From Gemmatimonadales bacterium (GTDB lineage Bacteria > Gemmatimonadota > Gemmatimonadetes > Gemmatimonadales > GWC2-71-9): a stretch of 64,000 nucleotides of DNA. The notes below the pieces were generated by a model. It was given only the letters and a program-made list of their open reading frames with translations. It was not told the origin of the DNA and searched no databases. The stretch covers positions 1 through 64,000 of the forward strand of contig JBFJCP010000005.1 in NCBI GenBank assembly GCA_041615815.1, written 5' to 3'. Both the position numbers and the translations under genes were made by a program. This document shows positions 34,976-41,175 of the stretch, piece after piece; position 1 is the stretch's first letter, and the number at the start of each line of letters is the position of its first letter.

Positions 34976-36100
34976 TCACCGGTTCTCGAACACCTCCTGG
35001 TGCACCGTGAGGTGTTCGAGCCGGTCGCGATTCACTTCGACACCGAGGCCCGGCCGGTCGAACGGGACCGTGATCAGTCCATCGGCCATCGTCCACTCCG
35101 GCGCCACGATGTCCTCATGCCAGTATCGGCTCGACGGGCTCACGTCGCCTGGGATTGTGAAGTTTGGGAGCGATGCGAGCGCCACATTGTGAGCCCGGCC
35201 GATTCCCGACTCCAACATGCCACCACACCACACCGGGATAGCGTGTGCAGCCGCGATATCGTGAATCGCGAGGGCTGCGGTGAGCCCTCCCACCCGACCG
35301 GCCTTGATGTTGATGATCCGACCGCTCCCCAAGTGGATCATATCCGCCGCCCGGTCAGGTGACGTGATCGACTCGTCGAGGCAGAGCGGCGTGCGCAATT
35401 GGCGCTGAAGCTCCGCATGACGCAGCAGGTCATCGGTCCCCAACGGTTGCTCGATCATCATGAGGTTGTACGGATCCAAGGTCTGCAGACGCTCGGCGTC
35501 TTCCAGGCGATACCCGCCATTGGCGTCGGCCATAATCGGGGCGTCTGGTCCCGCGGCCTCCCGGGCGGCGCGGATATACGGCTCGTCGGCACCGGGTGCG
35601 ATCTTCACCTTGATGCGGCGATACCCCGCCGCCAGGGCGGTCCCGACCCGATCGGCCAGATCTGACGGCCGCTCCTGGATCCCGAGCGAAATCCCAGTCG
35701 CGATCTGCTGCCTCGCACCCCCGAGTGAGCCGGCCAGGGAGACCCCGAGTTTCATGGCGGCGAGGTCCCACGACGCCATTTCCACGCAAGCCTTGGCCAT
35801 GCGGTGTCCGCGGAACGCGTCGTCGAGTGCTCGCGCGAGCGCCTGCGGGTTCTCGAAGGTCCGACCCACTACCACCGGGGCGATCCATTCGCGAAGCGCC
35901 AGCCAGGCGGTGTCGATCGTCTCTGGCGAGTAGTTGGGCCGTTCGCCGGCCACACACTCGCCCCAGCCCACCGCTCCGTCGGCGTCGACCACCTCCACCA
36001 GCGCGATCCGCCTCGCCTGCGAGACGCCTGACGAGATGCGAAACGTCTCCTTGAGATCCATCCGAATCTCGCGAACGACGATGCGATCCAGCCGAAACAT
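34976..36100 (-). CDS. menC: NSAR/OSBS subfamily enzyme (N-succinylamino acid racemase/o-succinylbenzoate synthase)
   Basis: Enolase-superfamily motifs KVK, DAN, EQP, DES, INIK and WCGGMLESGIGR. Confidence 0.88.
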   Translation of the reverse strand: MFRLDRIVVREIRMDLKETFRISSGVSQARRIALVEVVDADGAVGWGECVAGERPNYSPETIDTAWLALREWIAPVVVGRTFENPQALARALDDAFRGHRMAKACVEMASWDLAAMKLGVSLAGSLGGARQQIATGISLGIQERPSDLADRVGTALAAGYRRIKVKIAPGADEPYIRAAREAAGPDAPIMADANGGYRLEDAERLQTLDPYNLMMIEQPLGTDDLLRHAELQRQLRTPLCLDESITSPDRAADMIHLGSGRIINIKAGRVGGLTAALAIHDIAAAHAIPVWCGGMLESGIGRAHNVALASLPNFTIPGDVSPSSRYWHEDIVAPEWTMADGLITVPFDRPGLGVEVNRDRLEHLTVHQEVFENR

Positions 36101-36103
36101 GGG

Positions 36104-36913
36104 TCAGCTCTCTCGCGTCAGGATGTAGCGGGAGGCGGCGACGTCGTCACGCACGAATCCACGCACTTCGTACCCGCTGGCTAGGTAGTGTTGGAAGATC
36201 CGCCGGGTGAACATGCGCCAGCTGCGAGCGGCGTCGGGATCGCGCTGCTTGAGTGCTTGAATGTCCTCGGGCACTTCGAGCCATACGCTCGGTGCGGTCG
36301 GGAGCGCCTCGACGACCGAATCTGTGAGGGTGAGCGTCACGCCGGGCGGATGGACGGGGGAGGGGCGTGGGGTCTTCTCCTGTAAGTTCCATGCGACCAC
36401 GAAGCGATCACTCCCAATCACGCTATCCGTCGTGCTGTGTGGGCTCTGGCCGTACATGTCCGGGACATACTCCACTACCCGGGCGCCCAGTCGATTCAAG
36501 TTCAGGTGCGCGTTACGCGCCACGAGCGGGTCGTACGTCCAATACATGCGCTCGACACCCAGTGCCAGGAGACGGGACTGCTGGTAGTGCTTGAGGCGGC
36601 GGCCAATGCCCCGATCTCGTAGCGAAGCGGTCACCGCCAGCATGTGTGACCAGTGGGCAGGTGTACCGTCTCTGAGGCCCGTCAACCCGTACACGAAACC
36701 CACGAGCCGCCCGCTTTGGTCAAAAGCGCCGGCAGCGATACCACCCACCATTTGCGAGACCTTGAGCATGGCGGGGGGGACGAGCTCGCGAAAGTCATCT
36801 CCCCACGTTTCTCGTTGCAGCGCCACCGCGGCCTCGAAATCTGCTTCGGTTGCCAGGTCGCGAATGCGGGGATCGGAGGTCTCGCTCGAGGGCGGGTGCG
36901 CGTTGTCGGTCAT
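36104..36913 (-). CDS. GNAT acyltransferase, probable D-amino acid N-succinyltransferase
   Basis: HWSHMLAV, RGIGRRLK and WTYDPLVARNAHLNLNRLGA motifs; directly upstream of the NSAR gene. Confidence 0.82.
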   Translation of the reverse strand: MTDNAHPPSSETSDPRIRDLATEADFEAAVALQRETWGDDFRELVPPAMLKVSQMVGGIAAGAFDQSGRLVGFVYGLTGLRDGTPAHWSHMLAVTASLRDRGIGRRLKHYQQSRLLALGVERMYWTYDPLVARNAHLNLNRLGARVVEYVPDMYGQSPHSTTDSVIGSDRFVVAWNLQEKTPRPSPVHPPGVTLTLTDSVVEALPTAPSVWLEVPEDIQALKQRDPDAARSWRMFTRRIFQHYLASGYEVRGFVRDDVAASRYILTRES

Positions 36914-37115: not shown

Positions 37116-37691
37116 ATGCGCATCGAGTCCCGCATCGCCGGTTTCCTCTCCGTGGCCGCGCTGGCACTGACAGCGTGTTCCGGCGGGGAGCAGCAGACGC
37201 AGGCGAATCCCTGTAACCCGTGCGCGGCCGCTGCGACAATCGACGCCGCGCTCATTACGCAAGGCACCAACACGCTGCATACCGAAACGCCCACGGCGCA
37301 GCTCGTGGCCCGGGGCACGGAGTTGTGGAACGACAAGTCGCTCTCCGCGAGCGGTGGCGTCGCCTGCTCCACGTGCCACGTGAACAACTACGCTCAGATG
37401 CAGGCGACGTTTGCCGAGGCCTACCCACACCAGGTGGCCATGGCCAAGCAGCGCGCCGGCCTCGATCAGGTGACGGCGGCCGAAATGGTGCAGCTCTGCG
37501 TGGTCATCCCGATGGGTAGCGAGCCGCTCGCATGGAACTCCGTGGAGCTAGCCGCGCTGACGGCCTACGTCCGGAATATCCAAGGCGGCTTCGACCCGTC
37601 GATGGCCACCGCCAATCCGTGTAATCCATGTGCCGGAAATCCATGTAACCCCTGCGGGGGGAACCCCTGCAATCCGTGTGGGGGTGGGTAG
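37116..37691 (+). CDS. Lipoprotein monoheme cytochrome c (SoxA/TsdA-like domain) flanked by NPC repeats
   Basis: GGAGG RBS; lipobox LTAC; CSTCH; AYP...EMVQLC...PMGSEPL...SVELAALTAYV; 2 N-terminal and 6 C-terminal NPC motifs. Confidence 0.85.
   Translation: MRIESRIAGFLSVAALALTACSGGEQQTQANPCNPCAAAATIDAALITQGTNTLHTETPTAQLVARGTELWNDKSLSASGGVACSTCHVNNYAQMQATFAEAYPHQVAMAKQRAGLDQVTAAEMVQLCVVIPMGSEPLAWNSVELAALTAYVRNIQGGFDPSMATANPCNPCAGNPCNPCGGNPCNPCGGG
37614..37688 (+). repeat. Coding tandem repeat NPCNPC(A/G)G x3
   Basis: Synonymously diverged codons encoding NPCNPCAGNPCNPCGGNPCNPCGGG. Confidence 0.9.
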
Positions 37692-37797
37692 GCAACCACC
37701 TGGGCTCGTGCTGACGATACCGGGGTTGACAGGCCGAGCGAGCGTGGTCAGGGTACTGGCTCGGAAGAAGACTCGATCACCCGTCCTTGGAGGAGCG

Positions 37798-38007
37798 ATG
37801 CGTAGCGCCAAACGGACAGCCTATCTCTTTGCCGCCCTCCTGTTCGCCGTGGGCGCATGCTCAGGTGGCCAGGAGGCTGGCGCCGGTGAGGCGGCCAACC
37901 CCTGTGCGGCCAACCCGTGCGCAGCCAACCCGTGTGCGATGGCTGACTCGATGCCGACGAACCCTTGCGCGGCCAATCCGTGCAACCCCTGCGGTGGGGG
38001 GCACTAG
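37798..38007 (+). CDS. Small Cys-rich NPC-repeat lipoprotein (69 aa)
   Basis: GGAGGAG RBS; lipobox VGAC; mature region GEAANPCAANPCAANPCAMADSMPTNPCAANPCNPCGGGH. Confidence 0.85.
   Translation: MRSAKRTAYLFAALLFAVGACSGGQEAGAGEAANPCAANPCAANPCAMADSMPTNPCAANPCNPCGGGH
37891..37992 (+). repeat. Coding 15-bp repeat (AANPC)n
   Basis: GCGGCCAACCCCTGT-GCGGCCAACCCGTGC-GCAGCCAACCCGTGT plus further copies downstream. Confidence 0.9.
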
Positions 38008-38052
38008 CCGATCGGACGCTGGCGTTGTGGGGTTGATCAGCACGCCCGAGCA

Positions 38053-39288
38053 TTGAGCACGCTGCACCACGTGGCCCGGCGTCGATGCGCCGGGCTGTGT
38101 GTTTCGGTTCTGTTCCTGGTTTCGATCGTCGCGTGCGTTGACCGGGCGGCCGTCGGGCCCGGGGACCAGCGGGTTTTTGCCACGCTGGACGCCTTTGTTG
38201 GCGCCTACTGGGAACGTCCCATTCCGCTCCAGGGCACCCCACCCGACCGTTTTTCCCTCATCGAGGTTTCGTTGAGTCCCAGCGACTGTGGGCGGTGTCA
38301 CATCCCCCAGTACGAGGATTGGCAAACCACGCTCCACGCGGCTGCCTATTCGCCGGGGCTCTCGGGCCAACTCGTCGATCACGAGGCGAGGAATTATGCG
38401 TTTGTCCGGTCGTGTCTTGCGTGCCATGCACCGCTGGGCGAGCAGTCCGCCTGGGTGCCGGACGCCGGCGGGCGACTGGTGCGAAATCCGTCTTTCGATG
38501 CGGCCTTGCAGCAGAAGGGATTGGTGTGCGCCGCGTGCCACCTGCGGGGCTGGCAGAGGTACGGACCCCCGCGACGCGACGGCTCGCTGGATCCGGCACC
38601 GCCCGGAACGGCGCACGCCGGCGCCATCCGCAGCTCGTATTTCGAGGACCCTCGCTTCTGTGGCAGCTGTCACCAGTTTGCACAGCCGGCCCCGAACGGA
38701 AAATCACTCCAAAACACGCTTGTCGAGTGGCAACAGAGCCGGTACGCTCGCGAGGGCATCGTGTGCCAGACGTGCCACATGCCCGATCGGCGCCATCTTT
38801 GGCGAGGGATCCACGACTCCGCCATGGTGGATAGCGGAGTGACGATCCGCTGGATCGAGCCTACCCGGGGCGAGATCGCCCTTCGCGTGACGAATACGGC
38901 CACGGGACACCGCTTCCCCACGTATGTGACCCCCAAGGTGCAAGTCGTCGTGGAGCTCCTGGACACAGCGCGGGTGCCCCTCGCCGGTGCGGTGAGCGAA
39001 GGCGTGATCGGGCGTGCCGTGGTCTCGACGAGTAGTGGCTGGGTGGAACAATGGGATACCCGGCTACCGCCTGACAGCAGCATGGCGGTGTCGGTGCCGC
39101 GGCAGCCCGCCGCACGGTTTGCGCGCGGGCAGGTGCACGTGTTTCCCGATGGTTTTTATAACACCATGTTCGCCGGAATGCTGGCGCGTTCGCTGAGCGA
39201 TACGGCGCGGGTGTTGATCACTGAAGCCCATCGCCGAACCGTCGAGAGCTCGTACCTGTTGTTCGATTCCACGATCGCCCTGCCCTGA
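38053..39288 (+). CDS. Pentaheme c-type cytochrome lipoprotein (c554-like domain)
   Basis: Five CxxCH motifs (CGRCH, CLACH, CAACH, CGSCH, CQTCH); lipobox IVAC; TNTATGHRFPT motif; start uncertain (TTG 38053 or GTG 38071). Confidence 0.88.
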   Translation: MSTLHHVARRRCAGLCVSVLFLVSIVACVDRAAVGPGDQRVFATLDAFVGAYWERPIPLQGTPPDRFSLIEVSLSPSDCGRCHIPQYEDWQTTLHAAAYSPGLSGQLVDHEARNYAFVRSCLACHAPLGEQSAWVPDAGGRLVRNPSFDAALQQKGLVCAACHLRGWQRYGPPRRDGSLDPAPPGTAHAGAIRSSYFEDPRFCGSCHQFAQPAPNGKSLQNTLVEWQQSRYAREGIVCQTCHMPDRRHLWRGIHDSAMVDSGVTIRWIEPTRGEIALRVTNTATGHRFPTYVTPKVQVVVELLDTARVPLAGAVSEGVIGRAVVSTSSGWVEQWDTRLPPDSSMAVSVPRQPAARFARGQVHVFPDGFYNTMFAGMLARSLSDTARVLITEAHRRTVESSYLLFDSTIALP

Positions 39289-40201: not shown

Positions 40202-40338
40202 GACTCCATTTACGAGATCGGGTCTGGGGCCCCAACATACGCCCTGGCGGACGGGCCGGCCACGGGATCGAGGAGGTGTGACGAATGCCACGGTGGGCCT
40301 CGGATGCCCGGGCTAGCTTGCCGGGCATCGAAGGCACA

Positions 40339-40752
40339 GTGAAGGCGTCCGCCGTCGTGGGCGGGACGGGAATGCTCCTTGTCGGACTGTCCTTGCTCTC
40401 AGCGGGCGCCTGCGGTTCCGATCGTCCGGGGTCTTCCTCGAGAGAGGTGCCTCGGGTGTTGGCCCCGACTCCCGCCGCGTTCGCGCGCGGCGAGTCACTC
40501 TACCTCGCTCACTGCGACCGGTGTCATGGTCACCGGGCCACGGGCTCGGAGATCGGACCGCCGCTGGTGCATTCGACGTACGAGCCCCGCCATCACGCGG
40601 ACGCGGCGTTTGTCTTGGCTGTGCGGAACGGTGTTCGAGCCCACCACTGGCCGTTCGGAGACATGCCGCCGGTCCCTGGGCTCAGCGAGGACGACGTCGC
40701 CTCGATCGTCGCGTATGTCCGATGGCTTCAGCGTGAGGCGGGCATCAACTGA
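40339..40752 (+). CDS. Monoheme cytochrome c (His-rich), probable lipoprotein
   Basis: CDRCH; GPPLVH...EPRHH...GVRAHHWPFGDMP; AGAC lipobox; start uncertain. Confidence 0.85.
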   Translation: MKASAVVGGTGMLLVGLSLLSAGACGSDRPGSSSREVPRVLAPTPAAFARGESLYLAHCDRCHGHRATGSEIGPPLVHSTYEPRHHADAAFVLAVRNGVRAHHWPFGDMPPVPGLSEDDVASIVAYVRWLQREAGIN

Positions 40753-40782
40753 CGCGCACCCGTTTGAGCTGAGGAGGTTCTC

Positions 40783-41175
40783 ATGCGTTCACCAACCCGT
40801 GGTCTCATTGCCCTGACGGCGCTCGTGTTCGCCGCGCCGGCGGCCCTGGTGGCACAAGACACCAAGGTTGGGGTGGAAGCAACGCTGGCACAGGATGTCG
40901 TGGACCGGATGCCTGTGGGAGCCGCCACGACGTTCGCCCCCGACGTGGGCAAGGTGTACCTCTGGACCAAGGTCCACGGGGCCGACGGCACCCAGATCTC
41001 GCACGTGTGGATCCACGGATCTCACGAGGCGGTGGTTGAGTTGCCCGTGGGCGGTTCGCCGTGGCGCACTTGGAGCAGCCGCACGATCAATCCGGAGTGG
41101 ACCGGTGAGTGGCGGGTCGAAGTGCGGAACGCCGCTGGTGATGTGCTCGAGACGATCACCTTTACGATTGGGTGA
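40783..41175 (+). CDS. DUF2914-like exported protein
   Basis: GAGGAGG RBS; signal peptide; VYLWT, ISHVW, WRTWSSR and GEWRVEV. Confidence 0.8.
   Translation: MRSPTRGLIALTALVFAAPAALVAQDTKVGVEATLAQDVVDRMPVGAATTFAPDVGKVYLWTKVHGADGTQISHVWIHGSHEAVVELPVGGSPWRTWSSRTINPEWTGEWRVEVRNAAGDVLETITFTIG

Follow-up and report, generated by a model that had tools for sequence, protein, structure and literature searches.

Between positions 37,116 and 39,288 of the window (the whole 64,000-nucleotide stretch of Gemmatimonadales DNA analysed in this study), three genes form a genuine module of which no description was found, apparently a variation on haem-cysteine sulfur chemistry, in which proteins bearing the motif Asn-Pro-Cys (NPC) travel with a pentahaem cytochrome c. 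The three co-oriented open reading frames (ORFs) lie on the plus strand and encode a monohaem cytochrome of 191 amino acids with eight NPC motifs, a 69-amino-acid peptide with six, and a pentahaem cytochrome of 411 amino acids, a layout already given in the initial annotation and confirmed here by reading of the ORFs and motifs. All three products are predicted to be surface-anchored lipoproteins, the calls being lipoboxes (LTAC, VGAC and IVAC) picked out by eye. Judging from the sequences, the module likely moves or neutralises reactive sulfur, lending the pentahaem a cysteine that it lacks. The features of the locus are as follows.

37116..37691, plus strand: NPC-flanked monohaem cytochrome c with a SoxA/TsdA-like domain, predicted lipoprotein, 191 amino acids (eight NPC, one CxxCH, PF21342)
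37206..37223, plus strand: N-terminal NPCNPC pair of the monohaem cytochrome (sequence)
37365..37379, plus strand: haem-binding CSTCH, residues 84-88 of the monohaem cytochrome (sequence, alignment)
37485..37499, plus strand: Met124 to Cys128 of the monohaem cytochrome, putative distal ligand Cys, with Met at the TsdA/SoxA Arg position (alignment)
37614..37688, plus strand: C-terminal array of the monohaem cytochrome, six NPC, end NPCGGG (sequence)
37798..38007, plus strand: free NPC-repeat peptide, predicted lipoprotein, 69 amino acids, six NPC (sequence)
38053..39288, plus strand: pentahaem cytochrome c of MccSep/ExtKL type without catalytic Cys or selenocysteine (Sec), predicted lipoprotein, 411 amino acids (five CxxCH, profile alignment); start codon TTG at 38053 or GTG at 38071, both possible
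38707..38712, plus strand: Leu219-Gln220 of the pentahaem, at the position of MccSep Cys239, the distal ligand of haem 2 (profile alignment)
38920..38928, plus strand: Thr290-Tyr291-Val292 of the pentahaem, residues of the conserved GHxFPTY loop that correspond to MccSep Asp323-Gly324-Sec325 (alignment plus extension)

Recurrence of the module

In-frame NPC arrays were found in 5 of 301 Gemmatimonadota genomes, spread over four families, and the pentahaem was found in exactly the same five (0 of the 296 others). Pattern matches in G098, G214, G159 and G005 were out-of-frame DNA repeats and had been dropped before this count. None of the 124 genomes from the window's own family contained an NPC array or the pentahaem. 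Among 400 Gammaproteobacteria, 14 carried the monohaem cytochrome and 23 the pentahaem; both occurred together in 10 genomes compared to 0.8 expected, a figure whose significance is inflated by kinship, the genomes being related and not independent. An NPC-bearing gene lay on the same strand within 3 kb of 19 of the 23 gammaproteobacterial pentahaems (within 7 kb for 20), compared to 4 of 300 windows placed at random in the own genome and 3 of 24 loci with an ordinary rhodanese. The window's order of cytochrome, peptide and pentahaem is kept in two genomes (G370 and G669), and in a Dadabacteria genome the pentahaem adjoins an NPC peptide. Pentahaem and cytochrome stood no more than 2 kb apart in 14 of 56 GTDB loci and in 10 of 80 from metagenomes, a good number of which are short or near-copies; the full triad was rarer (1/56 GTDB loci, 4/80 metagenome loci, and 2/13). 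Given that the triad is rare and an NPC gene stands near most pentahaems, the constant element is the pentahaem plus some NPC-bearing protein. The initial annotation had proposed a system whose parts should co-occur elsewhere, and they do so as a conserved module in three phyla; its view of the pentahaem as a mere wire is not supported, since this is the gene most tightly tied to NPC.

A pentahaem without the MccSep cysteine and selenocysteine

The five CxxCH motifs of the pentahaem are collinear with the haem motifs of MccSep, and a profile of 14 orthologues aligns across all five haems to MccSep (9wt8/9wt9, residues 32-323, E 4e-8); the same profile also aligns to cytochrome c552 (5ze8). MccSep is a polysulfide reductase in which haem 2 is ligated by His122 and Cys239 and Sec325 attacks the substrate (PMC13510729). 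Cys239 falls on Leu219 of the pentahaem (on Gln220 when the Thr residues after it are brought into register), and Sec325 falls on Val292, where the alignment proper stops at Asp323 (Thr290) and the next two positions are assigned by extension. The relatives share a GHxFPTY(V/L/M/I) loop and have no in-frame stop, and no non-haem Cys occurs after the first haem in 14/14 and 19/19 pentahaem relatives. The likeness to MccSep/ExtKL and to extHIJKL of Geobacter sulfurreducens (PMC13510729, PMC5877670) lies in the collinearity of all five haem motifs and in the loop on which MccSep bears its Sec, and the difference consists of the absence of Cys239, Sec325 and a matched Arg83 (which in MccSep lies in an insertion), a score of 38 bits against NF040886, whose cut-off is 250, and the NPC-bearing partners. 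From this comparison, haem 2 of the pentahaem would have an open distal site.

A sister clade beside an NPC-tailed rhodanese

Seven gammaproteobacterial pentahaems form a sister clade (support 100/100), and their neighbours offer an independent view of the NPC motif. Downstream, a trihaem cytochrome and a porin-like gene are present in six of the seven loci (none in G340), and the porin of L257 scores above the ExtI cut-off (346 bits; cut-off 150). Upstream, YeeE occurs with TusA and small conserved genes in 4/7 loci, an arrangement resembling the YTD cluster (PMC9676032), and a rhodanese-like gene matches ExtH below the cut-off. The genes around extKL in Geobacter, with an ExtH-type rhodanese and an ExtI porin, stand in this order too (PMC5877670), and the likeness to extHIJKL extends to the sister clade's own neighbours. 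Canonical ExtH above the cut-off was found in none of 401 Gammaproteobacteria or five other genomes.

In all six linked loci, the ExtH-like rhodanese ends in a Gly/Ser linker and a single NPC. Among the best 120 relatives of this protein, 117 end in NPCG or NPCGG and all 120 in N-x-C-G, with the rhodanese-type Cys loop kept; the query profile contained the NPC motif, and the 120 are close kin. None of 25 other complete rhodanese-type proteins has an NPC-type end. The named relatives come from Thioalkalivibrio (one of them from T. sulfidiphilus HL-EbGr7), Thiobacillus, Thermithiobacillus and Sideroxydans. The cysteine-less pentahaem hence pairs with NPC in two forms, as a single rhodanese arm in the sister clade and, many times over, as free or fused repeats like those of the window. 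The idea of a sulfur-carrier arm, put forward in the initial annotation, gains independent support from this NPCGG-tailed rhodanese beside the sister pentahaem.

Two gene sets that include NPC-bearing genes recur. One is an ext-like sulfur operon of Gammaproteobacteria (L257:6835-14910 in G472, also L258, L262 and L265), which contains YeeE, TusA, three small genes, the NPCGG-tailed ExtH-like rhodanese, the cysteine-less pentahaem, a small C-x-C protein, the trihaem cytochrome, the ExtI porin and a two-component system. The other is a proteobacterial cassette (L121:7504-14245, L114:7470-14288 and L249:7560-11948) with the NPC peptide, the NPC cytochrome, DUF6969, a cupredoxin-like ORF, DUF302, YeeE, an extracytoplasmic function (ECF) sigma factor with DUF3379, and DUF3179. 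In the window genome DUF6969, DUF302, YeeE and DUF3379 are unmatched, and DUF3179 is present in several copies.

The NPC repeats and the free peptide

Two of the eight NPC motifs in the monohaem cytochrome follow the lipobox and six are C-terminal, the protein ending in NPCNPCGGG and the peptide in NPCNPCGGGH. Over the 14 motifs of both proteins the codons include AAT and AAC, all four Pro codons, and TGT and TGC, which confirms the earlier statement that they have diverged synonymously with N-P-C kept. Tandem Repeats Finder reported a single degenerate array (15-bp period, 84% matches), the DNA being weakly repetitive. At least two NPC motifs occurred in only 2 of 58,853 six-frame stop-to-stop segments of at least 40 amino acids from the window genome, namely the two window proteins. 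The CxxC pairs expected from NPCNPC are borne out in the cytochrome (four pairs) and hardly in the peptide, which has one. A SoxY-like terminal CGGG is not conserved, as free NPC peptides end in CGG in 2 of 83 cases and GG follows the last NPC in 22 of 120 monohaem cytochromes. The free peptide has no Pfam or NCBIfam match and no named family in the protein atlas, and a profile of free NPC peptides matches 391 protein representatives, an unnamed family for which the module gives a direct assay. The window peptide did not match the Cys-every-fifth CefA family (NF038108) of ribosomally synthesised and post-translationally modified peptides, and one P460 fusion reached 19.9 bits (cut-off 30). Cornifin matches in Pfam were taken as low-complexity matches, and a second "free peptide" among the 56 GTDB loci, that of L041, is more likely the tail of a frameshifted cytochrome, so that one free peptide is left in this set. 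In searches of plasmids, the cytochrome had one partial match, the peptide and the rhodanese had none, and multihaem matches were all distant.

Cysteine density raises the possibility that the repeats bind soft metals (Cu, Ag, Hg or Cd) as a metallothionein-like envelope buffer, with the cytochromes setting the redox state of metal or thiol. Consistent with this are the CxxC pairs, the His- and Met-rich gammaproteobacterial versions, and scattered neighbours: a multicopper oxidase (L003), a heavy-metal ATPase with a MerR regulator (L136), MerT with an HMA protein beside a divergent pentahaem (L263), and a cupredoxin-like ORF, its fold assigned by eye, in 6 of 24 loci. However, the neighbour clusters show no recurrent metal transporter, MNIO is absent from all five Gemmatimonadota carriers, the single terminal NPCGG of the rhodanese is an arm and not a chelating array, and the number of repeats varies from 2 to 31; from these sequence features, we consider metal buffering unlikely. 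Two variants were also observed: a lipoprotein of G104 (L167:7099-7476) joins a Met/Asp-rich segment to four NPC, as if MrpX and the NPC peptide had been combined, and a locus of G401 (L248:7647-10291) encodes two peptides and a cytochrome that mix NPC, CGAC and CC motifs and are more metallothionein-like than those of the window.

The arrays are also found on other proteins. The number of NPC motifs in cytochrome relatives ranges from 2 to 31 around a constant core (120 listed of 739), and 97 NPC fusions include 38 monohaem-family cytochromes, 24 proteins with an unnamed small domain, 8 P460-type, 4 YceI and 2 YHS proteins. The unnamed domain (as in P0125, P0134, P0136, P0154 and P0158) spans about 85 amino acids and has no Pfam or NCBIfam match. 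Arrays stand at both ends of these unrelated domains in 32/38 cytochromes, 23/24 members of the unnamed family and 4/4 YceI proteins, as would be expected if NPC arrays were generic assembly tags that cross-link exported proteins by disulfides, with no role as carriers. Such tags would not lead one to expect that the partner pentahaem has lost its catalytic Cys, or that a rhodanese bears a single-copy arm, and we regard them as very improbable.

The monohaem cytochrome

Against PF21342 the monohaem cytochrome scored 33.3 bits (cut-off 27), which places it in the SoxA/TsdA fold; its relatives number 739, and the closest are from Gemmatimonadota. The structure model of its core, which includes no haem, has a high confidence score (pLDDT, predicted local distance difference test, 96.5) and best matches the N-terminal part of SoxA (1h31_A, residues 52-145; Z 9.0, root mean square deviation 3.0, 94 aligned), followed by about tied matches to hydrazine synthase gamma (Z 8.3) and TsdA (8.0 and 7.8, the latter 4v2k_A). 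With this model, none of the Foldseek matches reached E 0.001, the best being TsdBA at 3e-3, and single-sequence PDB searches gave nothing useful. Cys128 is invariant in 61/61 alignment rows, and a Cys stands 40 residues after the haem His in 99/119 relatives. Cys128 is the putative distal ligand of a haem predicted to be His/Cys-ligated; the invariant His105, Met109 and Met124 are alternative ligands.

The thiosulfate-binding residue of TsdA is Arg119, which precedes the ligand Cys123 by four positions and is conserved without exception in TsdA and SoxA (PMC4423706). Met occupies this position in 119/120 relatives of the window cytochrome, position Cys-14 of the family is Ala, Ser or Gly, position Cys+4 is Pro, and the whole-protein score for the TsdA/SoxA type (TIGR04484) is 29 bits against a cut-off of 110. 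Because Met replaces the thiosulfate-binding Arg and other site residues differ, the monohaem cytochrome is probably not a thiosulfate enzyme. It resembles SoxAX-SoxY and TsdA (PMC4423706) in its fold, the Cys at ligand spacing and, together with the peptide and the rhodanese, a flexible Cys-Gly-Gly arm; it differs in that Arg is missing from both Cys-4 and Cys-14 and Ser from Cys+4, and in consisting of a single domain. Fewer than three NPC were present in 6 of 56 GTDB cytochrome loci (one cut by the contig end), and the existence of NPC-poor and NPC-free members indicates that the arms are dispensable for the monohaem domain. With the invariant Arg replaced and NPC-free members known, the SoxA-like chemistry that the initial annotation had ascribed to this haem acting on the tail is not upheld. 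Two NPC-free cytochromes (L253:7843-8541 and L047:4079-7584) have an acidic (EGEA)n extension; a small leader-like ORF and an ATP-grasp gene of the tubulin-tyrosine-ligase type lie nearby, possibly an unrelated peptide-modification system.

The neighbours of the cytochrome in 24 dereplicated non-Gemmatimonadota loci of at least 8 kb bear on two readings. YeeE was present in 8 of these loci. AhpD/CMD-like genes were found in 7, ECF sigma factors in 8, RclR-like regulators in 2, glutaredoxin in 1 and pyridine-nucleotide disulfide reductases in 3 (glutathione reductase confirmed in L246), and AhpD-like genes adjoin NPC-free cytochromes. The AhpD-like protein RcsA degrades hypochlorous acid (PMC9751292), and MrpX is a Met-rich peptide cycled by a reductase (PMC4623255). 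It is conceivable that the repeats sacrifice their thiols to oxidants, for example hypochlorous acid or peroxide, and that the haem proteins then regenerate them, in a Cys counterpart of MrpX and its reductase, a chemistry shared with the sulfur-carrier reading but acting on a different substrate. None of these neighbour genes adjoins the locus in the window, the RclR-like match reaches 128 of 400 bits, far under the family cut-off, and a single NPC arm on a rhodanese is left unexplained; we consider an oxidant sink unlikely. A "chlorite dismutase" (Pfam) beside the cytochrome of L097 is HemQ and was dropped.

Proposed mechanism

The reading that we favour, with no better than even confidence, is that NPC would be a docking cysteine arm bringing sulfane sulfur to the pentahaem, and the repeats a multivalent buffer for sulfur or thiol. 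It is based on the co-travelling genes, the pentahaem without Cys239 and Sec325, and the NPC that tips the rhodanese arm in the sister clade. The NPC repeats would take up persulfide or polysulfide sulfur or oxidise to disulfides; an NPC cysteine would then enter the vacated distal site of haem 2, giving in trans what MccSep provides as a cis residue; and an S-S bond would be cleaved or formed at haem 2 while electrons move along the haem chain. The monohaem cytochrome, with its own arms, may be a secondary redox partner, the many repeats would confer capacity, and the lipid anchors would hold the parts together. The direction could be either reduction and detoxification or oxidation. A broader and more tentative proposal is that NPC is a portable periplasmic sulfur-carrier code, written as one rhodanese arm or as many repeats, which completes a cysteine-less MccSep-type pentahaem in trans. 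Of the poly-Cys carrier suggested in the initial annotation, the module and the sulfur-carrier arm find support, and the SoxA-like monohaem, the CGGG end and the wire-only pentahaem do not.

Several observations weigh against this mechanism. A distant alignment is the only source for the state of haem 2, the structure model of the pentahaem is poor (pLDDT 57, too poor for structure search), and five further His that are invariant or nearly so would also fit an all bis-His wire. The window genome has no YeeE, no ExtH-like rhodanese (best E 2e-6) and no SoxY match, and YeeE is present in only one of the five Gemmatimonadota carriers. A pentahaem match is lacking in 4 of the 14 Gammaproteobacteria with the cytochrome, and in G074 and G104 the pentahaem is present but unlinked. 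For 3 of the 23 gammaproteobacterial pentahaems the available DNA contains no NPC gene: that of G468, whose upstream region is cut off, and the long-branched ones of G544 and G563. In G468 the ExtH-like protein, which is unlinked, ends in QGCG, and some of the domains flanked by NPC arrays are unrelated and not known to act on sulfur. Separately, the tree does not show the NPC-linked pentahaems to be one clade, and a complex prediction of the pentahaem with the monohaem core (score 0.01) speaks neither for nor against the mechanism. The window genome does contain 12 rhodanese-domain matches.

Relation to known systems

Parts of the module resemble SoxAX-SoxY, TsdA, MccSep and MrpX, but on sequence grounds it is not Sox, TsdA, MccSep or a bufferin. 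The initial annotation had noted that sox and MNIO genes are absent from the window, and for SoxY and MNIO this extends to the whole window genome (4.19 Mb, 95.7% complete), in which neither has a match. SoxY carries its sulfur on an arm with the sequence GGCGG; it was found in 0/5 Gemmatimonadota carriers and 9/22 other genomes tested, and the module further differs from Sox in having many cysteines per carrier. Bufferins and other MNIO-modified metal-binding peptides are likewise exported Cys-repeat peptides, and differ from the window proteins in their motif, in the presence of MNIO, and in that here the repeats are fused to enzymes. MNIO (PF05114) was absent from the window genome and the four other Gemmatimonadota carriers, which makes the MNIO modification raised earlier unlikely here; one MNIO gene lies 6 kb from the NPC locus of L244, behind unrelated genes. 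MrpX with YedYZ (MsrPQ) in Azospira suillum (PMC4623255) is similar in that a short exported peptide of low complexity, in which a single sulfur amino acid abounds, adjoins a redox enzyme, often with an ECF sigma/anti-sigma pair nearby. In the NPC system, by contrast, the residue is Cys and not Met, the enzymes are c-type haem proteins and not a molybdoenzyme, and DUF3379, not NrsF, stands beside the sigma factor.

A literature search on NPC repeats or NPCGG motifs, the periplasm and sulfur found no description, in line with the earlier statement that no named system has this layout; its coverage excluded subscription journals and bioRxiv supplements. The Discussion of the MccSep paper names no periplasmic sulfur-transfer partners (PMC13510729). 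For the extracytoplasmic uptake, storage and turnover of polysulfide in bacteria, the module offers a candidate carrier motif and enzyme. If the broader proposal is correct, sulfur oxidisers and heterotrophs of sediments would have a selenium-free, carrier-completed polysulfide oxidoreductase whose repeats store sulfur and can be recharged, and a haem-ligating cysteine on loan from the repeats of a partner protein would represent unusual haem chemistry.

Genomic context

The G+C content of the locus (0.63-0.66) gives no sign of foreign origin. The whole stretch lies within a single contig in two of four sequencing runs examined (X1 and X5), both marine metagenomes, near-identical and possibly its source. 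A promoter scan of the locus gave no sigma-70 match. One further feature lies at the start of the pentahaem gene.

38068..38101, plus strand: 15-pair hairpin with a T-rich tail, possible partial terminator (weak: 2 found versus 1.8 expected)

This hairpin, not above chance in the scan, could reduce expression of the pentahaem relative to both NPC genes. The flanking genes are on the opposite strand and outside the module, a GNAT and MenC-like pair upstream and a beta-propeller protein downstream. The upstream pair (34976-36913, minus strand) is divergent from the module and adjoined by an M20 peptidase, a set that we take to be typical of N-succinyl amino acid racemase pathways. At 40285-41175 (plus strand), 1 kb downstream, are a second exported monohaem cytochrome and a DUF2914 protein, which are not among the module's conserved neighbours. 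On contig C20 of G000 (55770-88602), eight large multihaem ORFs with 8 to 18 CxxCH each are clustered, a possible electron source or sink for the pentahaem.

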